From a virus (Duplodnaviria; Heunggongvirae; Uroviricota; Caudoviricetes), in IMG/VR virus record IMGVR_UViG_3300017917_003366: a stretch of 64,000 nucleotides of DNA. One strand, 5' to 3'. Positions within the stretch are counted from its first letter, which is position 1; the number at the start of each line of letters is the position of its first letter. The notes under the pieces were generated by a model that worked only from the letters and a program-made list of their open reading frames with translations, ran no database searches and was not told the DNA's origin. The position numbers were made by a program, and so were the translations under genes. Shown here piece by piece: positions 1-46,067 of the stretch.

Positions 1-96
1 TGGCATACGAGTACCTCTTGGGTCCTGTGTTGTCATTTCGGTTGCGAGTTCGATTAACTTCGCATACATTTCATCAGATACTTCTATTGTTTTCAT
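1..96 (-). CDS. Partial CDS (N-terminal 32 codons; gene continues beyond the left edge of the window), hypothetical
   Basis: ATG at 96..94 overlapping the TAA of the upstream gene (TAATG). The open frame runs to position 1 with no stop. Not in the ORF track because it is truncated. Confidence 0.3.
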   Translation of the reverse strand, partial: MKTIEVSDEMYAKLIELATEMTTQDPRGTRMP

Positions 97-695
97 TATG
101 ATAAAGAATTTGGTAAGTACAATAATGTGGGGTTCTTCTTTTGAATGTCGACGTGAGGATATATATTCTTAAACTGCAACACATCAAACCTTGAGGTTAT
201 AAAATGATAACCGTTCTTTGTTGGGACGATACATTCAATTTTATCTCCTTCAGGTCTGGTTGCATTAATAACTTTTGTCATTCTCACAACTTCATTTTCA
301 TCTGTTGTATCCAAATCAACAATCCATCTCTTCTCTTGAGTTTTGATTTGACCGACAACGGAATCAAACAATCCTTTCTGGTTGTGTTGTCCATTCTGAA
401 TACGTTGAGCAAGGTCAACCATCATACTCAGTGAAACATTAAAATGATTTTGTTTCTGTACATGGATGTATGCCCTTGCTTTGAACATCTCACATAGTTG
501 TTTAATCTCGTCGTATCTCCTGTCAAGATGTTCAATACTTTCAATACAATAAGTTTTAATTGTTCTTACTGACTGGTGGTTATCTCTTTCATCTTCAGGT
601 TGGTCTTTCTTTCTCTTGAATACATAAAGCATATAGAAATCTCCCTTCTCTGAGAAGTTCAAAAGACCTTTAACTAATTCAATATTGTCAATCAT
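96..695 (-). CDS. Hypothetical protein (199 aa), immediately downstream of and probably co-transcribed with the nucleotidyltransferase
   Basis: Long ORF 2 nt after the upstream gene; no motif I can name. Confidence 0.5.
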   Translation of the reverse strand: MIDNIELVKGLLNFSEKGDFYMLYVFKRKKDQPEDERDNHQSVRTIKTYCIESIEHLDRRYDEIKQLCEMFKARAYIHVQKQNHFNVSLSMMVDLAQRIQNGQHNQKGLFDSVVGQIKTQEKRWIVDLDTTDENEVVRMTKVINATRPEGDKIECIVPTKNGYHFITSRFDVLQFKNIYPHVDIQKKNPTLLYLPNSLS

Positions 696-696
696 A

Positions 697-1428
697 TTAT
701 TGTTCTAATGTTGGTTTAAGCCACAAAATATTCTTCTTAAAAATATAGTTTCTAAGTGCCGGGTAATCATTAAGAATCTTCAATGTTTTAATCGTATCGT
801 ATTTAAAACATTTAAATAACTCTTCTCTAATCCTTTCAACTGAAACTACTTTCATTTTTGTTTCATAATCATAATCTTGGATTACCCCATCCATGAACGG
901 TCCAATCCAAAATCCTTTGGTAACACAAAAACGAATTGCTCTAAGTATCCTCAACGGGTCATCATCAAATGTTACTTTACAATCCAATGGTGTTCTCAAG
1001 TAACCTCGTTTTAAATCTTCGATTCCGTTGAAGTAATCGATTAGGTTACCGTCAGTGTCTTTGGCAATCGCATTTAAAGTGAAATCCCTACGAATCAAAT
1101 CATCGTACAAGGTACCGGGTTCAATTATCGGTTGTCTTGTGCCAGGAATATATCCAACCTCTTTACGAGCCATCACAAAATCAGCAACACCTTGATGTTT
1201 GTGTCCCACCGGAAACTTTGCTCGTATGGTAAAACAATCGGGAGTAACTAAAAACAATTCAAACCCTTCCTGTTTAAGATATTCTTCAAGAATCCCAAAC
1301 ATGGAATGAGCAGAACTAACGTCTTTTAATAAATCATCTGATGGTACCGCAACATAATCGATATCCTTAGATTCTAATTCAAGAATCTCGTCTCTAACCT
1401 TACCACCAACTTCATAAAATGTAAACAT
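697..1428 (-). CDS. tRNA nucleotidyltransferase / poly(A) polymerase head-domain protein (CCA-adding enzyme family, Pol-beta superfamily)
   Basis: N-terminal GGKVRDEIL plus DIDYV (GGxVRD...DxD signature), RRDFTLNAIA (RRDFTINA motif) and DPLRILRAIRF (DPLRxLRAxRF) are all present in order. ATG verified at 1428..1426. Confidence 0.75.
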   Translation of the reverse strand: MFTFYEVGGKVRDEILELESKDIDYVAVPSDDLLKDVSSAHSMFGILEEYLKQEGFELFLVTPDCFTIRAKFPVGHKHQGVADFVMARKEVGYIPGTRQPIIEPGTLYDDLIRRDFTLNAIAKDTDGNLIDYFNGIEDLKRGYLRTPLDCKVTFDDDPLRILRAIRFCVTKGFWIGPFMDGVIQDYDYETKMKVVSVERIREELFKCFKYDTIKTLKILNDYPALRNYIFKKNILWLKPTLEQ

Positions 1429-1432
1429 GCAA

Positions 1433-1466
1433 CAAATATAAAAAATTTTTTCGAATATCCAAAAAA
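1433..1466 (-). promoter_or_regulatory. Bacteroidetes-type promoter candidate (TTTG -N19- TATATTTG) upstream of the nucleotidyltransferase gene
   Basis: Minus-strand sequence TTTGGATATTCGAAAAAATTTTT TATATTTG TTGC ATG. The -7-like TAnnTTTG and -33-like TTTG have 19-nt spacing. Confidence 0.4.
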
Positions 1467-1490
1467 ATAAAACCCCTTTCGGGGTTTTTT
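1462..1490. terminator. Bidirectional rho-independent terminator hairpin (aaaacccc-tttc-ggggtttt) flanked by A and T tracts
   Basis: 8-bp GC-rich stem with 4-nt loop, T-run on both strands. It sits between the stop of the 96-aa ORF and the start of the next gene. Confidence 0.6.
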
Positions 1491-6601: not shown

Positions 6602-7267
6602 TTAGTACTGTGTTCTTAAAATTTCAATTACATCCCAAGCGTCTTCAAGTGCGTTATGTGTAACAATACCATTGATGTTTGCTCGTTCTTTACATGTTGT
6701 TAGTGATGGGAGTGATTTATCTTCTTTCCAATCAACAAATAAAATTGCTGGGTCAAGAACTCTTTGTCGAGTTCTAATAAGTTTCTTCCACCAAGGAAGG
6801 TCTTCGAGGAATAGTTTATCAAACGTTCCAAAGTTTTTACCGGCAACGTTGATTGTGATTGGTGGGGTGTTACCACCGAACACCGGAAATGGTATACCAT
6901 CAACAATTCTAACGGTCTTTAATGATTCAACATGCATCATGTAACCATTGGCCCACAAGAAGTCATAAAACTTTTGCACAACGTCATCTTCAGTACAAAA
7001 AATATAATCAGTGTGATTATTCATATTTGCTTTAGTTTCATCATCACCTTCCAAGTAATCACCAATCATCCCAATGATTTCTTTATTCATTGTAATTGCT
7101 CTTGGTGAACCTTGAATAGTGTGTTGTAGAACTATAGCATTAAACTTTGGTAGTTCCTCGTATGGTAATTTCTTTTCGGTATCTTCAATGATAGCTCCGA
7201 TAGATAAGATATTGTTCATATCAGGATTCAAACCTGACGTTTCAATATCGATACTTACATATTTCAT
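6602..7267 (-). CDS. DnaQ-like (DEDDh) 3'-5' exonuclease
   Basis: Exo I motif VSIDIETSGL and Exo III motif HNALEDAWDVIEIL. Confidence 0.7.
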   Translation of the reverse strand: MKYVSIDIETSGLNPDMNNILSIGAIIEDTEKKLPYEELPKFNAIVLQHTIQGSPRAITMNKEIIGMIGDYLEGDDETKANMNNHTDYIFCTEDDVVQKFYDFLWANGYMMHVESLKTVRIVDGIPFPVFGGNTPPITINVAGKNFGTFDKLFLEDLPWWKKLIRTRQRVLDPAILFVDWKEDKSLPSLTTCKERANINGIVTHNALEDAWDVIEILRTQY

Positions 7268-11225: not shown

Positions 11226-11879
11226 TTATCCAACAACATTTTGCATATCATCCATGTGATGGTCGAGTGGTCCCATCTCGGAACCGATTTCTCGTTTCTT
11301 CAACATCTTGATTACTTCATGCAAATCATATGGTTCGAATTCAGGATTACCATCCATACCAATATCCATACGACGACCATTACTAATCTTTTGGTTGTGT
11401 GGTAAATGACAATGTCCATGAAGGTGAACACGACCTTTACGAAGGTTATTCCAACTTGATATTGGGTAATGGCAACATTCTATTGTTTCTCCCATATATT
11501 CAAATTGCTCGAACCATGAAACACTCAAGAATAACTTTCGAATATCTCCACGATTCCTATCAATGTGGTGGTCGTGATTACCCAAAACCAAATGAATGTT
11601 TTGACAGATAATTCTATTCCTGAATTCCTCAATCTTTTCAAATCCACCGAATGACCAATCACCCAAATGAATTAATATATCATCTTGACCAACAAGTGAA
11701 TTGATGTTGTTTACAATTGCGGCGTTCATCTTTTCAATAGTTGGGAAGTCCCTTGTTTGATTAACAGGGATATCACCATTCGGTAACCTCCAATTCGTTA
11801 CACCACGACATATGTTCGTGTGTCCATAATGTGTATCGGATGTAATCCAAACTTTCTTCTCTTTTTCTAACTTAATCAT
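11226..11879 (-). CDS. Calcineurin-like metallophosphoesterase (Ser/Thr phosphatase-like)
   Basis: Motifs SDTHYGH (DxH), GDWSFGG (GDxxxRG-like), GNHDHH (GNHD/E) and HGHCH. Confidence 0.7.
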   Translation of the reverse strand: MIKLEKEKKVWITSDTHYGHTNICRGVTNWRLPNGDIPVNQTRDFPTIEKMNAAIVNNINSLVGQDDILIHLGDWSFGGFEKIEEFRNRIICQNIHLVLGNHDHHIDRNRGDIRKLFLSVSWFEQFEYMGETIECCHYPISSWNNLRKGRVHLHGHCHLPHNQKISNGRRMDIGMDGNPEFEPYDLHEVIKMLKKREIGSEMGPLDHHMDDMQNVVG

Positions 11880-15834: not shown

Positions 15835-15861
15835 TATTAAAAAACCCCTTTTCAGGGGTTT
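15835..15861 (-). terminator. Rho-independent terminator hairpin (aacccct-tttc-aggggtt) overlapping the stop codon of the upstream HAD gene
   Basis: 7-bp stem followed by a T tract on the minus strand. Confidence 0.5.
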
Positions 15862-16427
15862 AAAAATTGAATTATTTTGTCTTTTATTCCTGACTGTTTT
15901 ATACCTTCATCACCCTTTGGTGTTAGAACAAAGTTATCCAAACCCCAATCTTTCCATTCCTCACCATTTTTACCCATATCAAGGTCGTCAATTGAAACCC
16001 AATGGGTAACCTCAGGATGGTCATGTAAGAATTGTTTAATCTCAATGACACGTGTCATCTCTAAATCCCAACGTGGAGACCAAACCCAAACCATATCATT
16101 GTACCAATTACATTGACCTAAGTTGGTGGTCACCGCAATTGGTTTTTTGATGATACCTTGTAGTTCGTAGTATTCACCCAATTCATCCAAGTTTGCATGG
16201 TGTTTCCAATCAGAACTGACAACGATTTCTGCACCGGTTTCTTCTAAGATTTGATTAAGTACTTGAACCGCTTTCTTGTTAAAGTTGTCAAATCGATACT
16301 GTAATGGAATTTCTCTACTTGACATGGATAGTTTACGTCCTCCCCATTTGTCTTGTTTTTTGTAACGACCGCCCCACTCTGAGGACAAACAGATTACTCC
16401 GTCGTGGTCTAAAAATATAACTTTCAT
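15852..16427 (-). CDS. HAD-like phosphatase of the 'Swiss-army-knife' RNA-repair HAD type (paralog 1)
   Basis: N-terminal MKVIFLDHDGVICL (DxDGV motif I at the extreme N-terminus). Confidence 0.55.
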   Translation of the reverse strand: MKVIFLDHDGVICLSSEWGGRYKKQDKWGGRKLSMSSREIPLQYRFDNFNKKAVQVLNQILEETGAEIVVSSDWKHHANLDELGEYYELQGIIKKPIAVTTNLGQCNWYNDMVWVWSPRWDLEMTRVIEIKQFLHDHPEVTHWVSIDDLDMGKNGEEWKDWGLDNFVLTPKGDEGIKQSGIKDKIIQFLNP

Positions 16428-16429
16428 AA

Positions 16430-17002
16430 TTAATAGTTCAATTCTATGACGGTTTTTTCCAACATCGCCTTAGCAATTTCGTAGTAGTGTTGGTTAAAAC
16501 CATCTTTGTTTCTCGGTGAAGGTAACACATGAACAAAATGATTCTTTTGTCGATATAACATATCTGAATCATCATCTATGATAATGTAGTTCTCAATACA
16601 GGACTCATCCATTATTTTTTGCTGTTCCTCTTCTGACCAATTTATGTGGTGAAATTTTAAGTCATTCTCCAAGTAATATTCAATCTCTAAACCTCTTGGT
16701 ATATGTAATTTTGGTGTCCTCAATAGTGGGGTGATTCCAATAATCTCACCACTCATGTTTTCATATTCCCAAACCTTTTGCATAAACTCAATCCCACTCA
16801 TTCTCCAAGTTGATGAGATTACAATCTTGGCATTTGTCTCATCGATTAGTTTATTTAAAAGGTCTTTACTACGAACACAGAATCTTTGGTAATGGTCCTT
16901 GCGTCCATCTTCCCATGTCCATTCTTGGTACTGACATTCACCGGCTCGATAAGCGTTTTCACAATTCAATACGCCATCAATATCTAAAAAGATTATCTTC
17001 AT
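16430..17002 (-). CDS. HAD-like phosphatase of the 'Swiss-army-knife' RNA-repair HAD type (paralog 2, tandem)
   Basis: N-terminal MKIIFLDIDGVLNCENAY and IIIDDDSD motif III. Same architecture as the downstream paralog. Confidence 0.55.
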   Translation of the reverse strand: MKIIFLDIDGVLNCENAYRAGECQYQEWTWEDGRKDHYQRFCVRSKDLLNKLIDETNAKIVISSTWRMSGIEFMQKVWEYENMSGEIIGITPLLRTPKLHIPRGLEIEYYLENDLKFHHINWSEEEQQKIMDESCIENYIIIDDDSDMLYRQKNHFVHVLPSPRNKDGFNQHYYEIAKAMLEKTVIELNY

Positions 17003-26537: not shown

Positions 26538-26903
26538 ATGTTAGCAATAATAAACGGAAAACAATTCCAAGGAGAATACCTAACCCAACCTCATGAGATT
26601 CAAAAGGGGATGATGGGTAGAGATTCTCTTGATGGTTGTATGGTTTTTAAAATGGGAATGGGGCACCACACGTTTTGGATGAAAAACTGCGTTATCCCAT
26701 TAGATATTGTATTTGTAAACAAGAATAGAATTTCCCATATACATCAGAATTGTCCTCCAGCAGATTCACACGATATGAATCCACCGAGGTATACTGGTAT
26801 TGGTGACCACGTAATTGAATTCCCTGCCGGTACCTGTCAAGGTTGGAAGGTTGGGGATAAGGTTAACCTCTATCTTGGTACTCCACAGAACCCTGTGGGA
26901 TAA
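26538..26903 (+). CDS. DUF192-family protein (COG1430-like)
   Basis: GMMGRDSL, FWMKNCVIPLDIVFV and VIEFPAG blocks match the DUF192 consensus (GLMgR...FWMknTliPLDiiF...vLElpaG). ATG verified; plus strand. Confidence 0.55.
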   Translation: MLAIINGKQFQGEYLTQPHEIQKGMMGRDSLDGCMVFKMGMGHHTFWMKNCVIPLDIVFVNKNRISHIHQNCPPADSHDMNPPRYTGIGDHVIEFPAGTCQGWKVGDKVNLYLGTPQNPVG

Positions 26904-27621
26904 AATCATAGGTAACCTTCGGTTTCACTTTCTCAAACACCCAAAAGTAACTGTGGTATTTTCTTGCGTGATGTTGTTTGGACCACTTGGTTCCGTTGAA
27001 CGCATTTACTCTAATGTTAGATGTTAAAACAAACATGTCTCTCGGATAGAATCCAAGTGAGTAAGCCATGTTCATAACCATAACGTGACTAAAGTATTGT
27101 TTACCTCCTGACACTGTGTCCTGACATTTCATCACTACAAATCCACCGTCTTCGCACAATCTGTAAAGTTCTTTGAGTGTGTTGTAGTAATTTGATTTTA
27201 AATCATCGTAGGTTCCATAACCTTCAAATCTTTTAGCAATGATGGAACTTCCTTCTCTATTGTTTCTGTAACGAGCCCCACTACCAACAATAACGAATGG
27301 TGGGTCGTACATAATATTTTTCATTGAGCCAGATTCAAATGGTAAGTCCTCTGAGTTTGCTTCGATGACATGGTCGTAATGAGGATAAAGGTCGGTCTTA
27401 TGTACCGGGTCAGGTAATCCCTTCCAAAAATTTCCTTTTGAATAGGTGCAATCCAAATCGAATCGCTCAATACCATACAAATGCATAATATTAGTAATTG
27501 CTTCATGGTTAGAGGTATACACACTCTTTACCATCTTAAAATCTTTATCCATAGTTGTCATATCATTGAATTTATAAAAATATAAATAAAAATTTTCAAA
27601 TAACCAAACAACGCTACACAT
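26863..27621 (-). CDS. Putative DNA (N6-adenine/N4-cytosine) methyltransferase
   Basis: IMYDPPF (DPPY-type catalytic motif IV) and a Gly-rich candidate AdoMet motif. Confidence 0.5.
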   Translation of the reverse strand: MCSVVWLFENFYLYFYKFNDMTTMDKDFKMVKSVYTSNHEAITNIMHLYGIERFDLDCTYSKGNFWKGLPDPVHKTDLYPHYDHVIEANSEDLPFESGSMKNIMYDPPFVIVGSGARYRNNREGSSIIAKRFEGYGTYDDLKSNYYNTLKELYRLCEDGGFVVMKCQDTVSGGKQYFSHVMVMNMAYSLGFYPRDMFVLTSNIRVNAFNGTKWSKQHHARKYHSYFWVFEKVKPKVTYDFIPQGSVEYQDRG

Positions 27622-28177: not shown

Positions 28178-29536
28178 ATGAAGAAAAAGATTTTATTATT
28201 ATCCGATGATTTGAGAACAACATCGGGAGTCGGCACTATGTCCAAGGAAATTGTTCTCGGTACAATACACAAATACGATTGGGTTCAATTGGGTGGTGCA
28301 ATTAATCATCCTGAAGCCGGTAAAATTGTTGACATCAACGAAGATGTGAGAGAAAGAACAGGAGTAAAAGATGCAAATCTAAAAGTTATTCCTAACAATG
28401 GTTATGGTAACATATTCACTTTGAGAATGTTATTGGAGGTTGAGAAACCTGATGCCATTATACACTTCACTGACCCACATTACTGGCAATGGTTATATGA
28501 AGCGGAACATGAGATAAGACAACAGATTCCAATCTTGTACTATCATGTTTGGGATAACCTACCTGACCCTCTATTCAATAGGGATATCTATGAGAGTTGT
28601 GATTGGATTGGATGTATTTCCAAACAAACATACGGTCTTGTTAAAAGAGTTGGTTCAATTGATACGGAAGAATCGTACCAACCATTAAAGGATTGGCAAG
28701 TAAGTTATGTACCTCACGGTATCAACCCTGAAGTATTTAAACCGGTGGATACATTATCCGAAGAGTTAGGTAAACACATCTACAACAATAAAGAATATGA
28801 TTTCATTTTATTCTTTAACAACAGAAACATCAAGAGGAAACAACCAGGTGATGTTATCCTATCCTACAAATTATTCTGTGATTCACTTTCAAAAGAAGAA
28901 TCTGAAAGATGTTTACTCTTAATGCACACAACACCAATTGATGAGAATGGTACAGACCTAACCGCAGTTGCTAAAAGTGTTTGTCCCGATTATGATGTTA
29001 AATTTATTAATATAAAATTGGAACAGGAGAAGTTAAATGAGTTATACAATACAGTTGATTGTACAATTAACATCTCCAACAATGAAGGTTTTGGTTTAGG
29101 TACCGCAGAAAGTATCATGGCCGGTACTCCGATTATTGTAAATGTTACAGGTGGTTTACAAGACCAATGTGGTTTCAATTACACGGCAGAGGATTATGTT
29201 ACATTCGGTTCATTACATGATAAGAAAACACACGGTTCAACTAAACACGGTGAATGGGTTGTACCAGTGTGGTCTGATGTAAATAATTTAAATGGTTCTG
29301 TACCAACACCATATATCTACGAAGATAGAGTTAACAACTATATGGTTGCCGACGCGATTGGTCAAGTTTATAGTTGGGGAAGAGAAGAAAGAAAACGTAG
29401 AGGTTTGATTGGTAGAGAATGGGCAATGAAGAACCTATCAAATAAAGTTATGTGTGATGGTATTATCGATGGAATCGAAACCACATTCAAAAACTATAAA
29501 CCAAGAAAGAGATTTGATTTATATAAAATAGTATGA
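28178..29536 (+). CDS. Glycosyltransferase, GT4-like (GT-B fold)
   Basis: N-terminal ILLLSDDLRTTSGVGT and C-terminal NISNNEGFGLGTAESIMAGTPIIVNVTGG match the GT4 E-x-FG...EAMAxGxPVI signature. Confidence 0.6.
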   Translation: MKKKILLLSDDLRTTSGVGTMSKEIVLGTIHKYDWVQLGGAINHPEAGKIVDINEDVRERTGVKDANLKVIPNNGYGNIFTLRMLLEVEKPDAIIHFTDPHYWQWLYEAEHEIRQQIPILYYHVWDNLPDPLFNRDIYESCDWIGCISKQTYGLVKRVGSIDTEESYQPLKDWQVSYVPHGINPEVFKPVDTLSEELGKHIYNNKEYDFILFFNNRNIKRKQPGDVILSYKLFCDSLSKEESERCLLLMHTTPIDENGTDLTAVAKSVCPDYDVKFINIKLEQEKLNELYNTVDCTINISNNEGFGLGTAESIMAGTPIIVNVTGGLQDQCGFNYTAEDYVTFGSLHDKKTHGSTKHGEWVVPVWSDVNNLNGSVPTPYIYEDRVNNYMVADAIGQVYSWGREERKRRGLIGREWAMKNLSNKVMCDGIIDGIETTFKNYKPRKRFDLYKIV

Positions 29537-30780
29537 TGAAACCATTTTTATTATTTAGAGGACCTGTTGAAACCATTAGCGGTTACGGTGCACACTCAAG
29601 AGATTTATTAAAAGCACTCCGTGATATGGACTTATTTGATATTAGAGTTGATTCATGTAATTGGGGTAACAATCCAAGAACAGCATTAAAGGACAAGAAT
29701 GAATTTCATGATTGGATTAAAGTAAATAAAATCCATTCAATAAGTTCTACTCCTGATGTGTATGTTCAAGTTACAGTACCAAGTGAGTTTCAAAGAATTG
29801 GTAAATTCAATATCGGAATTACTGCCGGGATTGAAACCACTCAAGCACCAAAGGATTGGGTAGATGGTTGTAACAGAATGGATTTGATTATTACCACTTC
29901 AAATTTCAGTAAGGAGGTTTTACTTCAAACAGTTTACAATGAAATGGATAAGATGACGGGTAAACTGATTAAACAATATAGAATTGAAAAACCTGTTGAG
30001 GTATTGTTTGAAGGTGTTGACACATCAATCTATAACAATAAATTTAATAGTTTGAATATTGGAATTAAGGAAGATTTTTGTTATCTTTTTGTTGGTCACT
30101 GGTTGAAAGGTGATGTAGGTCAAGATAGAAAGGATGTTGGTATGTTGATAAAGTGTTTTGTTGAATCATTTAAAGACAAGGAAGACCAACCGGCTTTGAT
30201 TTTGAAAACATCCGGAGCTAGTTTCTCAGTTAAAGAAAGAGAATCGTTCAAAAAGAAAATAAAAGATTTGGTAAAGGGTGTTGATAATCCTCCTCCAATC
30301 TATTTGTTGTTCGGACAACTAACCGATGAAGAAATGAATGAGTTATATAACCACCCAAGAATTAAATCCATGGTAACCTTAACAAAGGGTGAGGGATTTG
30401 GTAGACCTTTATTGGAGTTTTCAATGACGGGTAAACCAATCATTGCATCAAATTGGTCAGGTCACAGGGATTTCTTACCAATGGACAAGGCAATTATGAT
30501 AGGCGGTTCATTGACGGAAGTTCATTCTAGTGTCGTTGATAATTTCATCATCAAAGATTCAAAATGGTTTACCGCAAATTACGGTGAGTGTGTTGAAGTA
30601 TTAAAAGTGGTGAAAGAAGATTATGATAAATTCTATGAGAACTCACAGGTTTTAATGGAAGAGAACAGAGAGAAGTTCTCAATGGAGAAGATGAAAGAAA
30701 AGTTCGAATCAATCATTACACCATTTACAATAAAACCAAAAGAAGTTAAAATAAACATACCTCAATTAACTAAACTATAA
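29533..30780 (+). CDS. Glycosyltransferase, GT4-like (GT-B fold)
   Basis: TLTKGEGFGRPLLEFSMTGKPIIASNWSGH matches the GT4 C-terminal signature; ATGA overlap with the upstream gene. Confidence 0.6.
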   Translation: MMKPFLLFRGPVETISGYGAHSRDLLKALRDMDLFDIRVDSCNWGNNPRTALKDKNEFHDWIKVNKIHSISSTPDVYVQVTVPSEFQRIGKFNIGITAGIETTQAPKDWVDGCNRMDLIITTSNFSKEVLLQTVYNEMDKMTGKLIKQYRIEKPVEVLFEGVDTSIYNNKFNSLNIGIKEDFCYLFVGHWLKGDVGQDRKDVGMLIKCFVESFKDKEDQPALILKTSGASFSVKERESFKKKIKDLVKGVDNPPPIYLLFGQLTDEEMNELYNHPRIKSMVTLTKGEGFGRPLLEFSMTGKPIIASNWSGHRDFLPMDKAIMIGGSLTEVHSSVVDNFIIKDSKWFTANYGECVEVLKVVKEDYDKFYENSQVLMEENREKFSMEKMKEKFESIITPFTIKPKEVKINIPQLTKL

Positions 30781-31016
30781 TGGATTTTAAATTCGGTAGA
30801 GATAATAATGATTTTTCTTTAAAGATTAGAAGAGCTAGAAGATTAAGAGCAGGGTGGACACCCGAGCTTGCACAAGACATTCAAGCTTTTCATAATATTG
30901 ATGCCGAATCAGAACTAGTTAGATTATTAACCGAAGAAATCACGAGACAGGTTGACAGGGAGATTATAAATGAACTTATGAATAAAGATAAATTTGAATT
31001 TAAATTCGGAAGATAA
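30780..31016 (+). CDS. Small protein (78 aa) beginning and ending with an FKFGR motif
   Basis: MDFKFGRDNNDFSL...KDKFEFKFGR. The motif recurs at the start of the next ORF. Confidence 0.4.
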   Translation: MDFKFGRDNNDFSLKIRRARRLRAGWTPELAQDIQAFHNIDAESELVRLLTEEITRQVDREIINELMNKDKFEFKFGR

Positions 31017-31291
31017 TGGGATTGAAGAATTTTAAATTTGGTAGAGATAACTATACAAATGATTTTACACTAACCGATTTTAATCTACCCTTATTAAGAA
31101 TCGCACCCGCAGTTGTGTTTCAACAAACAGAATGGGTGTTTCAATTTGATGAGGGGGAGCCTGTGGTATTTGCTTCACAACAAGAAGAACCCAATCTAAC
31201 AATCACATTAAACAATACAAACCACGCATCAATAGAATTCACAGACAATAACAAAAAATTTAAAATATTCGCAAGGGAGAGACAACAATGA
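31016..31291 (+). CDS. Small protein (91 aa) beginning with NFKFGRDNYTNDFTL
   Basis: Shares the N-terminal FKFGRDN-x-NDF(S/T)L motif with the upstream ORF; the DNA differs by synonymous changes, indicating protein-level conservation. Confidence 0.4.
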   Translation: MGLKNFKFGRDNYTNDFTLTDFNLPLLRIAPAVVFQQTEWVFQFDEGEPVVFASQQEEPNLTITLNNTNHASIEFTDNNKKFKIFARERQQ

Positions 31292-31914
31292 AAATCAGCT
31301 ATGGAATCACGGTATGTAATGAATTAAAGGAAATTAAAACCTTATTACCATTATTAATTGAACACAAAAGAGTTGAGGACGAAATTATAGTCCTGTACGA
31401 TGAGAAAAATGGTAAACAAGAAGTCCTTGATTATCTTTTACCATTTAACAAACTACCCAATGTTCAAACATGGAGAGGAATGGTGTTTGTTAATGACTTC
31501 GCCATTTGGAAAAATAAATTAAATGGATATTGTTCAGGAGATTATATTTTCCAACTCGATGCAGATGAATTGATTACAAAAGAATTGATACAGGATTTAC
31601 CATCTGTAATCGAATCAAATCTTGAGGTTGATTTATTTGTGTTCCCAAGAATCAATACCGTGAAAGGAATTACTGATGACCACATTAAGAGATGGGGATG
31701 GAAAATGGATGAGAAAGGTAGAATCAACTTTCCTGATTGGCAAGGAAGATTGTACAAGAAGGGTTTAAACTGGCATGGAAAGGTTCATGAGAAAATCATC
31801 GGAGCCAAAACATATTCCCTAATGCCTGAGGATGATGGCTATTGTATCATTCACGAAAAGACGATTGAAAGACAAGAAAGACAAAATAATTTATATTCAA
31901 AAATTACTAAGTAA
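31288..31914 (+). CDS. Glycosyltransferase family 2-like
   Basis: N-terminal ISYGITVCNELKEIKTLLP...IIVLYDE resembles the GT2 start (SVIIPTYNE...). Confidence 0.5.
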   Translation: MKISYGITVCNELKEIKTLLPLLIEHKRVEDEIIVLYDEKNGKQEVLDYLLPFNKLPNVQTWRGMVFVNDFAIWKNKLNGYCSGDYIFQLDADELITKELIQDLPSVIESNLEVDLFVFPRINTVKGITDDHIKRWGWKMDEKGRINFPDWQGRLYKKGLNWHGKVHEKIIGAKTYSLMPEDDGYCIIHEKTIERQERQNNLYSKITK

Positions 31915-32669
31915 TGAAATTAATACTAGCAACAGGTTCTGATTTAAACTACCTAAGTAAGATGAGACCTTACTTAAAATCTATAGAATCAAATTCAAAC
32001 TTTGATAAAAACATTTTGGTGTTTGTTGGTGAGGATGAGATACAACTTCCCTTTAAAAATATTGACATAGTTAACTTACCTGTGGGTAGAATTCAATCGT
32101 TGAATAGTAATAAGTGTGTTCAACATGGTGACTTCTTAAATTCTCCGGCGTTTGATTCTATGACTGAAGATGATGATGTTATCATCTATACTGATGGTGA
32201 TATAATCATACAAAGAAACTTGTCTGAAGATGAAATTAAATTCTATAATTCATTCAAAGATGGGGACGTGTATGTTGGATACAACGCATCACCAACAGAT
32301 ACGTTGGCAGATGAGGCGACGAGATTAGGAAAGACGGGTGCAGTTTCACCATACGTGAATATTGGTGTTTGGGGAATAACAAAGGTTTATAACACTGGTG
32401 TTCTTGCCATGAATAAAAAAACATGGGTGAAATTATTAGAGAGATACAACACATTATATCCTCACGTAGAACCTATGTTCTATCATTATGCAAAACAACA
32501 ATGGTTGATTTCATATATCATTGGTACCGACAAAGAGTTTAATGTAATCGAAATGGGTTATGATGTTCATAACCATAAACATTACCCAAGTCCTGTTGGA
32601 ACTTCTCAAGATGAAAATGGAGACGTTTACTTTAATAATAAAAAAGTTCTATTCAAACATAAGTGGTAA
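31914..32669 (+). CDS. Putative nucleotide-sugar-dependent glycosyltransferase (DxD-containing, GT-A-like)
   Basis: IIYTDGDIIIQ (DxD-like). Weak. Confidence 0.35.
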   Translation: MKLILATGSDLNYLSKMRPYLKSIESNSNFDKNILVFVGEDEIQLPFKNIDIVNLPVGRIQSLNSNKCVQHGDFLNSPAFDSMTEDDDVIIYTDGDIIIQRNLSEDEIKFYNSFKDGDVYVGYNASPTDTLADEATRLGKTGAVSPYVNIGVWGITKVYNTGVLAMNKKTWVKLLERYNTLYPHVEPMFYHYAKQQWLISYIIGTDKEFNVIEMGYDVHNHKHYPSPVGTSQDENGDVYFNNKKVLFKHKW

Positions 32670-33541
32670 TGAAATTAATCATTTTTGTCTTTGCTGGTCG
32701 AGAATATTGTATGAATTTACAATTACCATACATTATCAAAATCTTAAATGAGTATCCCGATTCGGAATACCACGTATGGAATTTTGCCAGAAATGAAAAT
32801 GACAACCAATATCTGAACACATTACCAAGTAAACACGATAGGATAAAAATCTTCAATGATTATTATGAAGGACCGAATCCTATAAAAGAATGTACTAAGA
32901 AACCAAACCACATTTGTTATTGTGAAAAATGTAGAACAGGTAAATGGTCTGAACCTTATAAATTCTATTCAAGTGATGAATATTCTGATTGTTTGTTTTT
33001 GAAATTGGATGATGATATTGTTTATATGGATTTAGATGGATTTGGTTCCTACCTAAAAACGATTAAAGACAATCCCGAATGTGTCATTAGTGCCAATGTC
33101 ATAAACAACGGAGTATGTGCATACTTTGACCCAATTATTAAAGAAAAAGTTATATCTAATAGATTAATTTTAAAAGAGGATAAATTTAATAAATGGTTTA
33201 TACTTTGTGTTGATTATAATTTTTTAAACCTATGTCATGATATGTTTTTATCTAATGAGTATACCAAAGTGGAGAATGTGATTGCATTTACTGATAGTAA
33301 AATCAGCATCAACACCATTGGGTTCAACCATAACATAATGTGTGAAGTTGGCGGAATACTTTCAAAATTGGCCGATAAGATACATGATGAAATGGTTTTC
33401 AGTCATCACACAACTGTTTTAATTTATCAAAATTTTATAACATCTCATTTACATTTTAGTGACCAAAATGCTAAGATGTCTGAAGATGTAAAAAAAACAT
33501 ATATTCAAAAGTATAAAGAATTATGCAGTACGATTATCTAA
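32663..33541 (+). CDS. Hypothetical protein, possibly a glycosyltransferase-like DxD protein
   Basis: LKLDDDIVYMDLDG. Weak. Confidence 0.35.
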   Translation: MVMKLIIFVFAGREYCMNLQLPYIIKILNEYPDSEYHVWNFARNENDNQYLNTLPSKHDRIKIFNDYYEGPNPIKECTKKPNHICYCEKCRTGKWSEPYKFYSSDEYSDCLFLKLDDDIVYMDLDGFGSYLKTIKDNPECVISANVINNGVCAYFDPIIKEKVISNRLILKEDKFNKWFILCVDYNFLNLCHDMFLSNEYTKVENVIAFTDSKISINTIGFNHNIMCEVGGILSKLADKIHDEMVFSHHTTVLIYQNFITSHLHFSDQNAKMSEDVKKTYIQKYKELCSTII

Positions 33542-34620
33542 TAGTAGGGACCGGATTCTTCGGTTCCATTTGTGCACATGAATTAACTAAATCAGGTAAG
33601 AAGGTCTTAGTTATTGATTCTCGTAATCACATTGGCGGGAACTGTTATACCGAGAATAAAGATGGTATCAATATTCAAGTATACGGTGCACATATTTTTC
33701 ATACATCAAATAAAGAAGTGTGGGATTGGATTAATCAATTCGCTGAGTTCAATACCTATCGTCACCATGTACTGGCAACATATGATAATGAGATTTACTC
33801 ATTACCATTTAGTATGTTTACATTCAATAAATTGTGGGGTGTTAATTATCCACACGAAGCCCAAGAGAGGATTAAATCACAATCTATCAGTATTGATGAA
33901 CCAACTAACTTAGAGGAGCAAGCAATCAAACTTGTGGGTAAAGATGTTTACGAGAAACTAATCAAAGGTTACACTCATAAACAGTGGATGAAGGACCCAA
34001 AGGAATTACCAAAAGAAATCATTAAACGTTTACCTGTTCGATTCACATGGGACAATAATTATTTCTTTGACAAGTATCAAGGAATCCCAATCGGTGGATA
34101 CACTCAGATATTTGAAAAGTTATTAGAAGGTATCGATGTTCAATTGAACACTAACTACTTTGATGGTAACTTACCTCCACATAAGAAAGTAATTTTCACA
34201 GGACCAATCGATAAGTTCTTTGGATACAAGTATGGTAAGTTAGAATATAAAACGGTTAGGTTTGAGCACGACCACTTGAATCAAATAAACTATCAGGGAG
34301 TACCTGTGATGAACTATACCAACTACGAAGTACCATACACCAGAATTATTGAACATAAACATTTCGAAGGTGTTGATACCAACTCAACATGGATTACACG
34401 TGAATACCCAACACAATACATCCCTGATGTTACCGACCCTTATTATCCGGTGAATGACAAAGAGAATAACGAAATGTTCTCCAAGTACAAAGAAGAAGCC
34501 GAACAGGTAAAAGAATGTGTGTTATTTGGTGGTAGATTGGGTGAGTACAAATACTACGACATGCATCAGGTAATAGAATCGGCACTTAACTTCATTAAAA
34601 AAGAAATCAATGGACATTAG
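33523..34620 (+). CDS. glf: UDP-galactopyranose mutase
   Basis: YDYLIVGTGFFGSICAHELTKSGKKVLVIDSRNHIGGNCYTE...YGAHIFHTSNKEVWDWINQF...YSLPFSMFTFNKLWG closely follows the Glf consensus (FAD-binding GxGxxG plus HIFH block). Confidence 0.85.
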   Translation: MQYDYLIVGTGFFGSICAHELTKSGKKVLVIDSRNHIGGNCYTENKDGINIQVYGAHIFHTSNKEVWDWINQFAEFNTYRHHVLATYDNEIYSLPFSMFTFNKLWGVNYPHEAQERIKSQSISIDEPTNLEEQAIKLVGKDVYEKLIKGYTHKQWMKDPKELPKEIIKRLPVRFTWDNNYFFDKYQGIPIGGYTQIFEKLLEGIDVQLNTNYFDGNLPPHKKVIFTGPIDKFFGYKYGKLEYKTVRFEHDHLNQINYQGVPVMNYTNYEVPYTRIIEHKHFEGVDTNSTWITREYPTQYIPDVTDPYYPVNDKENNEMFSKYKEEAEQVKECVLFGGRLGEYKYYDMHQVIESALNFIKKEINGH

Positions 34621-35713
34621 TTTAGTACTCGCAGTATTCAATAAATTAGATTTAACTAAGGATTGTTATAAAAGAATCCGTGAGATATATCCCGATGCCC
34701 CTTTTGTTATCAGTAGCGGTGGTTCAACAGATGGAACCAAAGAATGGTTAGAATCTTTAGAGGACGATAATCTTTCCTATATCCACGATGACGATAAATT
34801 AGTTTTCTCTGAGAACTACAATGCTGCAATTAAGTTGGTGGATACCGAGAAACTAGTTCTTATTCACAACGATATGGTCATTGGGAGACACTTTCTTGAG
34901 AATTTGGATAGATTACTCACACCAGATACTTTGCTCTCTTATACGACGTTAGAACCACCAATTTTCAAAGGTCATAACAGACCGGGTAAGTTGATAGTGG
35001 ACATGGGTTACGGATTCCATGATTTCAAATGGGAAGAGTTCGACGAGTTTGTTGAGGAGAATAAATCCGATTGTAAAATATATGACGGAGCAGTATTCTT
35101 TATGAGTGGATATAAGAAGATGTTTGAGGATGTTGGATTCTTTGATGGGTTTAGTTTTGTTCCCGCATTTGCTGAGGATGATGACTTCTTAATCAGAGCC
35201 AAACTCAAAGGATATAAACTCAAAACAACCACTTGTGCTATCACATATCACTTTGTTTCTCAAACATCAAGATTCAGTGAAGAATTCAAGAAGGACAGAA
35301 TGAAGTATGAGATTAACTCAAATAGAAACTTCGTCCGTAAATGGGGCATCCCAATTCCAGCATTTAACGAGTTACGTTATTGGGAGGATGATGGATTCAG
35401 ATATAAAACATTTACCATGGGTTTAACCACCCGAAGTAGAGCGAGATTGTTTGAGGTGGAACCATTCTTCGATAAGATTGATTTAGGGATGATTCCTGAG
35501 GATTATTTGGAGAATGAACAGAAGAACACCCGATATGATTTAAGGTCAAAATTCGTCCTTACAGACCTTGTAGATGTGATGGTATATGAAATGAGTCCAA
35601 TGACTGATGAGGATATCTATGTCCTTCAAAAATTACGTCTTTCGATACCTTACTATGAACCGGGTGAATACAAAGTTGGTTCATTAAAAATAGAAATAAA
35701 AAAGGGGGTATAA
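34610..35713 (+). CDS. Glycosyltransferase family 2
   Basis: ISLVLAVFNKLDLTKDCYKRI...SSGGSTDGTKEWL (GT2 N-terminal signature) and LIHNDMV (DxD-like). Confidence 0.55.
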   Translation: MDISLVLAVFNKLDLTKDCYKRIREIYPDAPFVISSGGSTDGTKEWLESLEDDNLSYIHDDDKLVFSENYNAAIKLVDTEKLVLIHNDMVIGRHFLENLDRLLTPDTLLSYTTLEPPIFKGHNRPGKLIVDMGYGFHDFKWEEFDEFVEENKSDCKIYDGAVFFMSGYKKMFEDVGFFDGFSFVPAFAEDDDFLIRAKLKGYKLKTTTCAITYHFVSQTSRFSEEFKKDRMKYEINSNRNFVRKWGIPIPAFNELRYWEDDGFRYKTFTMGLTTRSRARLFEVEPFFDKIDLGMIPEDYLENEQKNTRYDLRSKFVLTDLVDVMVYEMSPMTDEDIYVLQKLRLSIPYYEPGEYKVGSLKIEIKKGV

Positions 35714-39393: not shown

Positions 39394-39559
39394 CGATTCG
39401 TTTTAATAATTCTTCTTTTATTTCTTCCGCAGGTGTACCCTTATGGAATTGAAATGGTTTATTACATCTACATTTAAATTGTACATAATCGTCAACCAAT
39501 TCTTTATATTTTAATTCTAAAAATTCAATTCGTTCTTTTAACTGATTAATCTCTTCCAT
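39386..39559 (-). CDS. Small coiled-coil/CxC peptide (57 aa) between the halogenase and membrane genes
   Basis: ATG at 39559..39557 and TAA at 39388..39386. MEEINQLKERIEFLELKYKELVDDYVQFKCRCNKPFQFHKGTPAEEIKEELLKRIDD. Not in the track (shorter than 60 aa). Confidence 0.25.
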   Translation of the reverse strand: MEEINQLKERIEFLELKYKELVDDYVQFKCRCNKPFQFHKGTPAEEIKEELLKRIDD

Positions 39560-41081
39560 ATTTCTCCCTTAATTGTTCGTATAAGTTTGGTAATAGTTCG
39601 GTTAACAATTTCGTTTCGTATTTAATTAAATCTATTTTCTTTTCCATGTATGGTAGATAGTTTTCTTTGATTGAAACTCTTGGGGTTCTACCAAATGGAT
39701 TGTTGTAGAAGAATCCGGTTCCCCATAACCATTGGAACCAATTCACCGAACCAAAGATTCTACCTCTGAATAGTTCCTCCGCCGGTCTCACCGCCATAAT
39801 CTGTAACTTCTGCATCAAAGTATCAGGAATGAATGATTTGGTTTTACAATCCCTCCAAAACGGAGTATCATCTCTTTGACATGTTAGATAGTGAGCGTGA
39901 ATGAAATCACGAATGTCAATCATCATATCAATATTATCTCTATTGATTGTGTCGATTGTTTGAGATGTGTAGTTTAATTCATTCTTCTCAAGTTCAGTTG
40001 CCAATGTCGACATGATTCCTTGGAAGGTTGAGATTCCTGTTGATTCCATTGGTTCGGCGAATCCACCGGCCAATCCACATGCAACAACATTCTTAACGGC
40101 AACTCTTTCTCGAGTACCAACTCTCATGTTGATTTTTAACACATCACCTTCATACCCACCATGGAATTCTCTAAACTCTTTTTCCGCTTCTTCATCTGTA
40201 ATGTACTTAGATGAATAAACATAACCCGAACCGATTCTATCATAGATTGGTGTTTTCCATAACCAACCACTATTCATCGTATATAATCTACTGTACGGTT
40301 CCATTTCAGAATGTTTATCCTTATATGGAATTGGTGCAGCAATTGCTTTATCACAGAACAATGATTCCTCAAATGAAATGAATGGTTCACCCATCACCGC
40401 TTCAATTAATGCTCCTTTAAAACCAGAACAATCAATGTAAAGGTCTGCTTTAAATTTCTGTTGGTCCCATAATTTAATATCTTGAATGAAACCGAAGTCG
40501 TCGAGTTTAACTTGTTTCAAATCACCCTCAACAAACTTTACTCCATTAGGGATACAAACTTTCTTCTTGATTACTTCAGCGAATTTGACAGCATCAAAGT
40601 TGTAACTGTAAACGCTTTCAATATCACTATAGGTTGGGATGTAACTTAATTCATCATCAACGGTCGGTGATAGATTCTGAAGTGCTAAAGTTGGGGAAAG
40701 GAACAACTCATTTATTTTATGTGGGTCGTTCTCATGATATTTTAAAAGGTATTGTAGAAGATTTGTTTTCTGATTAATGTACAATGTTTGTTCGTTCTCC
40801 ACCAATACAAAGTGGTCACCTTTTTTTGACCAATTCATAAATCTTCCTCCGTATTTGTAAACTGCGGAAGATTCTTCCATCCAATCTTTTTCTTCCAAAC
40901 CAATAAACTTCATAAAGGAGTGAAGACTTGCGGTTGAACTTTCACCCACCCCAATGGTTCCAATTTTATTGGAATGGATTAATGTGATATCGAGTTTATC
41001 TTTAAATACTTTTGATAGTAATGCCGCGGTCATGATACCCGCGGTACCGCCACCGACGATTAATATTTTTTTAACTTCCAT
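39546..41081 (-). CDS. Flavin-dependent halogenase, tryptophan-halogenase family
   Basis: KILIVGGGTAGIMTAALLSK (GxGxxG FAD site). ITLIHSNKIGTIGVGESST. GWLWKTPIYDRIGSGYVYSSKYITDEEAEKEF (WxWxIP-like motif plus the GYVYSS block). ATG verified. Confidence 0.8.
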   Translation of the reverse strand: MEVKKILIVGGGTAGIMTAALLSKVFKDKLDITLIHSNKIGTIGVGESSTASLHSFMKFIGLEEKDWMEESSAVYKYGGRFMNWSKKGDHFVLVENEQTLYINQKTNLLQYLLKYHENDPHKINELFLSPTLALQNLSPTVDDELSYIPTYSDIESVYSYNFDAVKFAEVIKKKVCIPNGVKFVEGDLKQVKLDDFGFIQDIKLWDQQKFKADLYIDCSGFKGALIEAVMGEPFISFEESLFCDKAIAAPIPYKDKHSEMEPYSRLYTMNSGWLWKTPIYDRIGSGYVYSSKYITDEEAEKEFREFHGGYEGDVLKINMRVGTRERVAVKNVVACGLAGGFAEPMESTGISTFQGIMSTLATELEKNELNYTSQTIDTINRDNIDMMIDIRDFIHAHYLTCQRDDTPFWRDCKTKSFIPDTLMQKLQIMAVRPAEELFRGRIFGSVNWFQWLWGTGFFYNNPFGRTPRVSIKENYLPYMEKKIDLIKYETKLLTELLPNLYEQLREKYGRD

Positions 41082-45086: not shown

Positions 45087-46067
45087 TTAAATTGGACTCC
45101 ATATACCTGAAGCAGATGACAATGACCTTGGAGCATCTGCAATGGCAACTGCACTATCGGTATCGTAATAAACTTTATCGCTAAATGCGTTTTGATTTAA
45201 AATAGTTTGGTATCCACCTGCTAAGTAACCATGGTTTTGTCCCATAACTCCTGTGTTCTCACAGTTTGGTATGGACTGACTTCCATAATTCATTGTCCAA
45301 GTAGATATTATATTTCTATATTGACGTAAACTATTATCAATATGTGAACTTACACTTGTAAGGTAAAATTTACCTTTTTTACTGTTTACTCCCTTTTCGA
45401 GGGAATTGCCGGGTAATCCTAAACTACCAGGGGAATTTGTTGTTGGTTGGACTCTCCACGTTTCACTAGCAAATGGATATATTCTTGTTTGGTTCGCACC
45501 TGACTGATAATGATATCCATATTCTCTATCAAACCACCCAACTGAGTGGTCTGCGGTTCCAATATTTGCATCAGTTGTATTTGTGAACGTGTCGGTGGCA
45601 AAGGTTAAAATATCATAACCCGTGGAACCATTACCACAAGTATATGCTTTAGTTCCGAATGGAACACCTGTTGATTCATAACCAACTCCTTGTTGAATTG
45701 TTGATGGTGAACCCCCACAATAACCTCTGTTACCAATTGTGGTCATCACTTCTGTAGCCAAATTTATTTTATCATTTCCACAATACCCATTTTGATTATT
45801 TAGAAAATAATAACCGTGAGTATGGGCAGATGCCCAACCACCATATTTGTTTGGGTAACTTAAAGTACTTGAGCTTGTTCCCCAAGCGTCGGTGGCATAT
45901 TTTAATGTGGTTATTGCTGTCCAAACAGAACTTCCAATATAACCACCACCAATAAGTCCGCGAATTAGAATTAAACCAAGTTCATAATGGTCATCACGCA
46001 AGGTCTTTATGTCACGACCTTGTACTGTAAGATTTCCGGTGAAATTGATGTTACCATTAACTTTCAT
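45087..46067 (-). CDS. Putative receptor-binding/tail-fibre protein, paralog A (326 aa)
   Basis: MKVNGNINFTGNLTV... followed by about 6 blocks with GY..GG / TDxW periodicity. Ends NHGYLAGGY...YDTDSAVAIADAPRSLSSASGIWS. Confidence 0.5.
   Translation of the reverse strand: MKVNGNINFTGNLTVQGRDIKTLRDDHYELGLILIRGLIGGGYIGSSVWTAITTLKYATDAWGTSSSTLSYPNKYGGWASAHTHGYYFLNNQNGYCGNDKINLATEVMTTIGNRGYCGGSPSTIQQGVGYESTGVPFGTKAYTCGNGSTGYDILTFATDTFTNTTDANIGTADHSVGWFDREYGYHYQSGANQTRIYPFASETWRVQPTTNSPGSLGLPGNSLEKGVNSKKGKFYLTSVSSHIDNSLRQYRNIISTWTMNYGSQSIPNCENTGVMGQNHGYLAGGYQTILNQNAFSDKVYYDTDSAVAIADAPRSLSSASGIWSPI

Follow-up and report, generated by a model that had tools for sequence, protein, structure and literature searches.

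The 64,000-nt stretch of Caudoviricetes DNA analysed here (IMG/VR record IMGVR_UViG_3300017917_003366; in the following, the window) carries near its left end an ORF with the signatures of class II tRNA nucleotidyltransferases, which encodes the head and neck of such an enzyme but neither its body nor its tail. This raises the question of whether the gene is intact, what supplies the missing part, if anything does, and which RNA ends the protein would act on. In the original prediction the adjacent 199-aa ORF was proposed as a possible source of the body, and both the enzyme and two groups of phosphatases encoded elsewhere in the window were seen as parts of a dispersed RNA-repair and anti-defence toolkit. 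The two genes at the centre of the question are the following.

697-1428, minus strand: short class II nucleotidyltransferase gene (NTase; head and neck, PHROG 24229), identified by its ORF, PF01743, phrog_24229, an AF2 model (pLDDT 89.6) and Foldseek
96-695, minus strand: stand-alone AEP-fold protein of 199 aa (ORF199; phrog_14949), co-directional, starting 1 nt past the NTase stop

The NTase ORF runs from ATG to TAA and encodes 243 aa. Its strand, which had not been given before, is minus. Both Pfam models named in the original prediction were searched: PF01743 (PolyA_pol head) matched with E = 2.3e-16 and 60.7 bits (cut-off 23) over profile positions 2-126 of 126, whereas PF12627 gave only a faint match under the cut-off of that model (E = 0.03). 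The phage family phrog_24229 ('tRNA nucleotidyltransferase', 245 positions) was matched with E = 9.7e-63, NTase residues 4-240 being aligned to positions 6-242. Longer models are covered in their first part only. In the full-length phage family phrog_2244 this is just the first ~206 of 392 positions, and in the CCA and PcnB models of NCBIfam (360-470 positions) the first ~210-260. The cut-offs of the NCBIfam equivalogs were all missed, with 99, 94 and 90 bits against 290, 451 and 439 bits, respectively. Because more than 4,500 homologues with E<=1e-5 were found in a metagenomic protein collection, the assignment is far beyond chance. [quoted passage not shown] This kind of protein is already known, PHROG 24229 being an annotated phage family, to which the present gene adds a member.

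The three signatures quoted in the original prediction are all found in the 243-aa ORF, as GGKVRD (aa 8-13), RRDFTLNA (aa 113-120) and DPLRILRAIRF (aa 157-167). Residues were mapped by HMMER alignments to solved enzymes, and their roles were taken from a review (PMC3925840). In this way, the following core elements could be located.

1357-1407, minus strand: motif A, G8-G-K-V-R-D13 ... D22-I-D24, with two catalytic carboxylates (sequence; aligned to D55/D57 of the T. maritima CCA enzyme, TmCCA)
1159-1182, minus strand: third catalytic carboxylate D83 (aligned to TmCCA D99) and basic/acidic (B/A) motif R88-K-E90
1114-1158, minus strand: flexible loop, aa 91-105, with Y93, R98 and P100 conserved (alignment, loop length)
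1069-1092, minus strand: motif B, R113-R-D-F-T-L-N-A120 (alignments)
928-969, minus strand: motif D, F154-DDDPLRILRAIRF167, with the base-templating pair D157/R160 (translation, alignment)

The DxD pair, whose absence would have spoken against the assignment, is present as D22-I-D24, which corresponds to D55/D57 of TmCCA, and D83 corresponds to TmCCA D99 and to E74 of the A. aeolicus A-adding enzyme. [quoted passage not shown] The loop of 15 residues is within one residue of the loop length of the A. aeolicus A-adding enzyme, which is also the best PDB sequence match of NTase, and its pattern YxxxTRxP resembles the loop consensus 'Yxxx(x)SRxP' (PMC7014341). Addition of the terminal A requires both the B/A motif and the flexible loop, the latter being absent from bacterial CC-adding enzymes (PMC7014341). 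Conservation was assessed in an alignment of 32 close homologues (A3) and in a second one, to which phage homologues at 43-63% identity were added (A4). D22, D24, D83, D157 and R160 are invariant in both, the latter showing the same for R113, R114, D115, F116, T117, N119 and A120 of motif B. R88-K-E90 of the B/A motif and Y93, R98 and P100 of the loop are likewise kept across the 32 close homologues and A4.

In the AlphaFold model of NTase (pLDDT 89.6), the chain begins with a beta-sheet head, continues in helices as far as residue ~229 and closes with a tail of low confidence. A Foldseek search with this model retrieved 46 chains at E<=1e-9, which belong to CCA-adding or A-adding enzymes or to bacterial poly(A) polymerases; 4wc2, 1vfg, 5hc9 and 1miv are among them (E about 1e-13). 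The superposition extends over the whole query, with a TM score of 0.56-0.74 by query length, and covers under half of each target (0.32-0.50 by target length). For the comparison with CCA- and A-adding enzymes, the two TM scores are 0.64-0.74 and 0.36-0.50, respectively. By alignment, the C-terminus of NTase falls near residue 260 of the CCA enzyme from T. maritima. Judged from sequence and predicted fold, NTase consists of head and neck and lacks the helical body and tail. The 'only head/neck' description given originally is thus borne out by matches to the N-terminal half of the NCBIfam models and by a superposition that is query-wide but covers less than half of the targets. In CCA enzymes, the acceptor and T helices are recognised by the body and tail (PMC3925840), for which the wording 'constituting the tRNA binding site' has been used (PMC8563995). 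In their place, the phage protein has a short extension with a motif of its own.

709-726, minus strand: family-specific C-terminal motif L235-W-L-K-P-T240 in a basic tail (alignment)

L237 and T240 are invariant in homologues from phages of Bacteroidota, Actinobacteria and cyanobacteria, including those of Microbacterium and Synechococcus phages. The region around the motif is modelled with a pLDDT below 60, and the pI of the last 54 aa is 9.7, compared with 5.3 for the whole protein.

Relatives of NTase were found in 453 phage records by tblastn, the best phage matches all being about 240 aa long. Among them are the Cellulophaga phages phi17:2 and phi4:1 (47% identity) as well as Microbacterium (about 45%) and Synechococcus phages (44%), whose homologues have the same length; in all of these, the protein is annotated as tRNA nucleotidyltransferase. 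An unannotated human-gut phage scaffold (MT835470) encodes a protein of 61% identity. The members of PHROG 24229, such as phi17:2 gp032, Microbacterium phage Cece gp237 and Synechococcus phage B23 gp209 (~240-245 aa, 44-47% identity), share the motifs of NTase including the C-terminal (L/I)W/R-L-x-P-T tail. IMG/VR added 80 loci of 61-84% identity on contigs of up to 373 kb, often about 185 kb. Across the 84 loci analysed, the length of the NTase ORF stays within 240-282 aa, and this constancy in phages of three host phyla indicates a selected architecture and not a fragment.

Cellular homologues were searched in 185,579 prokaryotes, represented by one genome per species. The best matches have 36-48% identity, mostly 36-42%, and belong nearly all to Bacteroidota. 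The 45 cellular homologues that were checked are all full-length, with a median of 475 aa and a minimum of 467 aa. As the phage homologues from other host phyla (44-46%) are about as close to NTase as, or closer than, most cellular enzymes of the host lineage, the sequence comparison suggests that the short form is a phage-borne lineage rather than a product of host genes truncated time and again. A part in RNA repair has been discussed for the CCA-adding enzymes of large phages (PMC7824862), and a literature search returned no paper characterising a body-less phage CCA enzyme.

The reduced length admits two explanations in which NTase alone would not be a working enzyme. It could be a cca gene that was captured from a host and is decaying without a function, as it is half as long as its nearest cellular homologues. 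This reading is effectively refuted and is excluded by the conservation of the family: thousands of homologues of constant length in phages of three host phyla share invariant catalytic residues and a conserved C-terminal motif. According to the other explanation, NTase is one subunit of an obligate two-subunit enzyme, in which ORF199 binds the tRNA and stands in for body and tail. The genes lie on one strand with a single nucleotide between them, and ORF199 is the most persistent neighbour of NTase, being present in 65 of 84 loci and in 15 of 25 lineages (80% NTase identity). Its strand is that of NTase in every case, whereas the gene order is variable and its position ranges from 5 kb upstream to 6.4 kb downstream. 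The nature of ORF199 makes this arrangement very improbable. Its predicted fold is not an all-helical bundle but the alpha/beta fold of primase-polymerases of the archaeo-eukaryotic primase (AEP) type, and D127 and D129 (W-I-x-D-x-D) as well as G162 and H164 (K-x-G-x-H) are invariant in 55 sequences. We take these DxD and GxH motifs to be AEP motifs I and II; at aa 183, a candidate position for AEP motif III, D or E is common in the 55 sequences, but not invariant. None of the Pfam AEP models matched ORF199, and a fold search of BFVD returned uncharacterised phage proteins only. Furthermore, an exhaustive search yielded 1,644 representative clusters, almost all of stand-alone proteins of about 200 aa. 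No fusion with PolyA_pol was found: within the top 150 representatives, the ten longest proteins are without a relevant Pfam domain. The two families also occur apart. Lak-B5, crAss cr116_1, Tenacibaculum pT24, Dulem virus 40 and MT835492 have an ORF199 homologue but no NTase within 6 kb, and ORF199 is absent from the vicinity of the short NTases in Microbacterium and Synechococcus phages. ORF199 is therefore not the body of the CCA enzyme, as had been proposed, but a small stand-alone enzyme of the AEP superfamily with a DxD/GxH site of its own. The structures of both proteins were predicted separately; in a MAFFT alignment of an NTase-linker-ORF199 fusion, NTase homologues were smeared across the fusion (27-29% apparent identity).

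In annotated phages, the ORF199 family was found in Bacteroidota phages only (25 records). In the gut clade ORF199 adjoins DNA polymerase A (PolA), which suggests replication and speaks further against a role as NTase subunit, and in crAss cr116_1 its homologue shares its region with DNA polymerase I and an RNA ligase. A role in replication, in view of the PolA adjacency, or in RNA-end repair would fit. In the latter case, NTase and ORF199 might rebuild tRNA 3' ends as two separate enzymes: after deep trimming or cleavage, the AEP protein would fill in the 3' nucleotides of the acceptor stem with the 5' strand as template, and NTase would then add CCA, mirroring the rebuilding of 5' ends by the Thg1-like enzyme that relatives encode next to the two. 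We consider this hitherto unrecognised two-enzyme route quite improbable; if it were true, it would be a complete phage answer to defences that cut the acceptor end, e.g., nucleases of the Cas12a3 type.

The gene neighbourhood of NTase was analysed by clustering all ORFs within 10 kb of the gene in the 84 loci, with a check against Pfam. The following gene families accompany NTase.

RNA ligase (PF09414, some with a PHA02142 OB domain): 52 of 84 loci
PNKP (AAA_33 kinase and HAD_PNKP): 38 of 84 loci
Metallophosphatase family a (MPE_a): 32 of 84 loci
Thg1-like 3'-5' polymerase (PF04446): 29 of 84 loci
Stand-alone HAD: 27 of 84 loci
Metallophosphatase family b: 22 of 84 loci

After dereplication, at least one of ligase, PNKP and Thg1 is located beside NTase in 13 of 25 lineages. 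In the closest IMG/VR relative (L019, 84% identity), the order is NTase, Thg1-like polymerase, RNA ligase and AEP. These families belong to the phage RNA-repair repertoire described by Iyer et al. (PMC7824862; cf. PMC2904730), which includes stand-alone 'Swiss-army-knife' HAD phosphatases, calcineurin-like phosphoesterases, a CCA-adding enzyme and Thg1. We infer from this neighbourhood in the relatives, as good contextual evidence, that the substrate of NTase is tRNA. Many of the relatives share ancestry, and the repair context may partly be inherited synteny.

In the window itself, the domain assignments of the original prediction for the two groups of phosphatases could be verified.

11226-11879, minus strand: calcineurin-like metallophosphatase (PF00149, E = 2e-8; phrog_547 'phosphoesterase', E = 5e-45), a possible RNA-end healing enzyme by inferred link
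15852-16427 and 16430-17002, minus strand: tandem stand-alone HAD_SAK_2 phosphatases (PF18143, E = 2.7e-20 and 6.9e-21)

HAD_SAK_2 is the family of the stand-alone 3'-phosphatase of phage RNA repair (PMC7824862), and both the HAD pair and the metallophosphatase fall in clusters that accompany NTase in relatives (HAD and MPE_a). RNA ligase, PNKP and Thg1, however, were found neither in the 64-kb window, by tblastn with all cluster members of the relatives and by cluster HMMs against six-frame ORFs, nor in the 10 kb to the left of it, as represented by the flank of a 98%-identical relative. From NTase on, this flank encodes AEP, a 175-aa ORF, a Nampt-like protein, a 263-aa ORF and a PRPP-synthetase-like protein.

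The possible tRNA substrates differ among the phages. No tRNA or other known RNA family was detected in the window by ARAGORN and Rfam, and no tRNA gene is located in the 10 kb to the left of it in the 98%-identical relative. MT835470 (117 kb) also carries NTase and zero tRNA genes, and tRNAs within 10 kb of NTase were found in only 3 of 80 IMG/VR loci. One of the relatives (L050) has 20 tRNA genes 2-10 kb downstream of NTase, and the Cellulophaga phage phi17:2 has 22-23 tRNA genes. CCA is not encoded in any of the 42 tRNA genes checked in these two phages (22 of 22 in phi17:2, 20 of 20 in L050); in all of them, the discriminator (N73) and C74 are followed by A, T or rarely G. As the full CCA is not encoded, the tRNAs of phi17:2 and L050 need the addition of CCA or CA. 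In phages without tRNA genes, NTase would probably act on the tRNAs of the host. Nucleases that strip tRNAs of their 3' tails in defence are known, one of them from a Bacteroidetes bacterium (PMC12851939), and this makes a role of NTase in counter-defence plausible.

Taken as a whole, NTase is probably a minimal class II CTP/ATP:tRNA nucleotidyltransferase whose task is to complete CCA ends or to restore them, its activity, tRNA substrate, CCA product and role all being deduced from sequence, predicted structure and gene context. The head would provide the two-metal site (D22, D24, D83), the B/A motif, the flexible loop and the ribose-selecting motif B, and the neck the amino-acid template D157/R160 for the selection of C and A. 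The helical body and tail, which anchor the acceptor/T-arm in cellular enzymes, have been lost, and contact would probably be restricted to the acceptor end, perhaps via the basic conserved C-terminal tail. During infection, such an enzyme would add or restore the 3'-terminal CCA of tRNAs or part of it. It could mature CCA-less phage tRNAs where these are present and, where they are absent, mend 3' ends of host tRNAs that were hit by exonucleases or defence nucleases. Because body and tail are absent, specificity for tRNA and a stop after CCA are not assured.

For this reason, two readings with a different product have to be weighed. NTase may have a partial activity and add the terminal A only, or C75 and A76 only, to C74 or CC ends, together with the CCA enzyme of the host. 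The A. aeolicus A-adding enzyme as best PDB match would agree with this, as would the 42 tRNA genes of two NTase-bearing relatives, which all encode N73 and C74 and hence fit a start at C74, though this regularity may stem from rules of 3' processing and not from NTase. The restriction to A addition has, moreover, been attributed to the C-terminal part of A-adding enzymes, which restricts the ends that reach the active site (PMC7014341, PMC3925840) and is absent here, so that we regard a partial activity as unlikely. The other reading is an untethered RNA 3'-tailing for host takeover, by which C and A would be added to many RNAs, or tRNAs would be over-extended, with decay or blocked aminoacylation as a consequence. 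The loss of the tRNA-anchoring domains (PMC3925840) and the lack of tRNA genes over the visible 74 kb would be in line with it, and two precedents can be named. Gp22 of the Klebsiella podophage fHe-Kpn01, a truncated CCA-NTase-like protein of 182 aa, is toxic in E. coli (PMC7291057), and MenT toxins demonstrate that extension of tRNA 3' ends can inhibit (PMC11541572). Gp22, however, represents a different and shorter family, and the toxic effect was observed when it was over-expressed. The strict conservation of the C/A template and of the elements for A addition also argues against unspecific tailing, and the recurring RNA ligase, PNKP and Thg1-like neighbours favour restoration over damage. 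Tailing of this kind is accordingly improbable.

Compared with known systems, NTase shares the head and neck fold, the catalytic triad, the B/A motif, the flexible loop, the motifs B, C and D and the Asp/Arg template with the class II enzymes of T. maritima (3h37/5hc9), G. stearothermophilus (1miv) and P. halocryophilus (6qy6) and with the A. aeolicus A-adding enzyme (1vfg/4wc2). Unlike these, it lacks the body and tail of about 130-230 residues, which bind the acceptor/T-arm, and has its own short basic tail. It also differs in setting from phi17:2 with its 22-23 tRNA genes, as the window has none and the surrounding gene content is different. In the relatives, NTase is located within 10 kb of genes like those of known phage RNA-repair sets, i.e., Pnkp/Rnl of T4 or the combination of ligase, PNK, HAD, CCA enzyme and Thg1 in jumbo phages (PMC7824862, PMC2904730), whereas the window keeps only the HAD_SAK_2 pair and the metallophosphatase, and its NTase is the short form, which is not mentioned in the accessible part of PMC7824862. 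Going by its description, Gp22 of fHe-Kpn01 is a comparable case of a truncated class II homologue in a phage without obvious need for tRNA maturation (PMC7291057), albeit from another phage group and host. MenT toxins transfer nucleotides onto tRNA 3' ends (PMC11541572, PMC10435456), a likeness that bears on the tailing reading only. They belong to another nucleotidyltransferase family of toxin-antitoxin systems without the class II motifs, and no sequence match to MenT was obtained in any search.

If NTase is active as predicted, the short family would be a class II CCA-type polymerase that works with head and neck alone. Structural accounts place tRNA binding and part of the specificity in body and tail, and the family would thus be a natural minimal system. 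With thousands of metagenomic members and with phage carriers whose hosts span at least three bacterial phyla, it could serve as a model for substrate choice and for termination after CCA. The tRNA 3' end would then join the sites that are kept up by gut and marine Bacteroidota phages during infection, which is timely in view of CRISPR Cas12a3 nucleases, some from Bacteroidetes, that cut tRNA tails. The repair theme around NTase has already been described for large phages; the interest of the gene is modest and lies in the body-less form and its AEP neighbour. For the window, the practical gain is a corrected annotation, with an intact NTase gene and an ORF199 that encodes an AEP-fold enzyme and not a missing half.

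The transcriptional setting of the gene was examined as well. A scan for sigma-70 promoters around NTase gave fewer sites than in shuffled sequences, the sigma-70 model being unsuited to Bacteroidota promoters. One element was found upstream of the gene.

1433-1488, minus strand: terminator-like hairpin (1469-1488), then TATATTTG (1433-1440)

The hairpin separates the upstream gene from NTase, and TATATTTG, which ends 4 nt ahead of the NTase ATG, fits TAnnTTTG, presumably the Bacteroidetes -7 promoter box. Hairpin and box suggest that NTase is probably the first gene of a new transcription unit.

Within a tally that covers two phages bearing the short class II tRNA nucleotidyltransferase (NTase), the discriminator base and C74 are encoded in all 42 tRNA genes checked. 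These genes lie in the following regions:

L017:37749-41138, tRNA genes of Cellulophaga phage phi17:2
L050:4038-19915, tRNA genes of an IMG/VR relative

In the same 42 genes, C74 is followed by A, T or rarely G, and a complete CCA was found in none of them. The regularity of C74 is not explained by chance, because only roughly one base in six is C in the AT-rich genomes of both phages.

The NTase gene itself is flanked by a possible promoter and encodes a conserved C-terminal motif:

1433-1488 (-), intrinsic-terminator-like hairpin (8 bp stem, T-run) followed by TATATTTG
709-726 (-), motif LWLKPT, NTase residues 235-240

TATATTTG comes after the hairpin and precedes the NTase start codon (ATG) by 4 nt; it resembles a Bacteroidetes-type -7 promoter box, and the NTase mRNA might be leaderless or nearly so. 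LWLKPT is conserved in short NTases whether their phages infect Bacteroidota, Actinobacteria or cyanobacteria; it lies within a basic tail of 54 residues (pI 9.7) and is predicted with low confidence.

The most persistent neighbor of the short NTase, present at 65 of the 84 NTase-bearing loci analyzed, is a family with an archaeo-eukaryotic primase (AEP) fold, phrog_14949:

96-695 (-), stand-alone AEP-fold protein of about 200 aa
L001:4374-4982, L004:7967-8581 and L019-L098, further members in relatives

The family comprises 1,644 representative clusters. Its DxD and GxH motifs are invariant, and its annotated records all come from Bacteroidota phages.

The sequence that borders the window on its left was read from a 98%-identical relative (L006:10600-14461), in which the NTase-AEP pair is followed by four ORFs:

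175-aa ORF, phrog_3205, first after the pair
506-aa nicotinamide phosphoribosyltransferase-like protein, phrog_448 (E=9e-156)
263-aa ORF, between the phrog_448 and phrog_619 proteins
323-aa ribose-phosphate pyrophosphokinase-like protein, phrog_619

We take the pairing of phrog_448 and phrog_619 to resemble the phage NAD+ reconstitution pathway (Adps/Namat), which counters NAD-depleting defences. Immediately downstream of the short NTase of phi17:2, a gene annotated as 'polymerase' (gp031, L016:17907-19058) carries Pfam PF00644, presumably the PARP catalytic domain; if so, it would be another NAD-linked gene adjoining the NTase.

Further genes of the window include an exonuclease and several modification, sugar and auxiliary enzymes:

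6602-7267 (-), DEDD-type 3′-5′ exonuclease, 221 aa
24191-25408 (-), thymidylate-synthase-family protein, 405 aa, longer than usual
26863-27621 (-), DNA methylase
28178-35713 (+ block), four or five glycosyltransferases and UDP-galactopyranose mutase
39546-41081 (-), tryptophan-halogenase-family flavoprotein (E=7e-110)
58972-60642 (-), carbamoyltransferase
60642-61778 (-), UDP-glucose/GDP-mannose dehydrogenase

The exonuclease has weak Pfam matches to RNase_T and Rv2179c-like exoribonuclease and is labeled by PHROG as a DNA polymerase exonuclease subunit; its substrate may be either RNA or DNA ends. The thymidylate-synthase-family protein and the methylase adjoin the glycosyltransferase block, and this region could serve DNA hypermodification or sugar metabolism. 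The halogenase-family flavoprotein, the carbamoyltransferase and the dehydrogenase are unusual as auxiliary enzymes in a phage.

Three other features were recorded:

46067-56188 (-), single ORF of 3,373 aa
19610-22924 (-), PcfJ-like proteins encoded side by side, one of 462 and one of 626 aa
9218-10168 (-), SPFH/Band-7 protein

Very large virion structural proteins occur in a related Cellulophaga phage, and phi17:2 likewise has an annotated SPFH protein (gp169).
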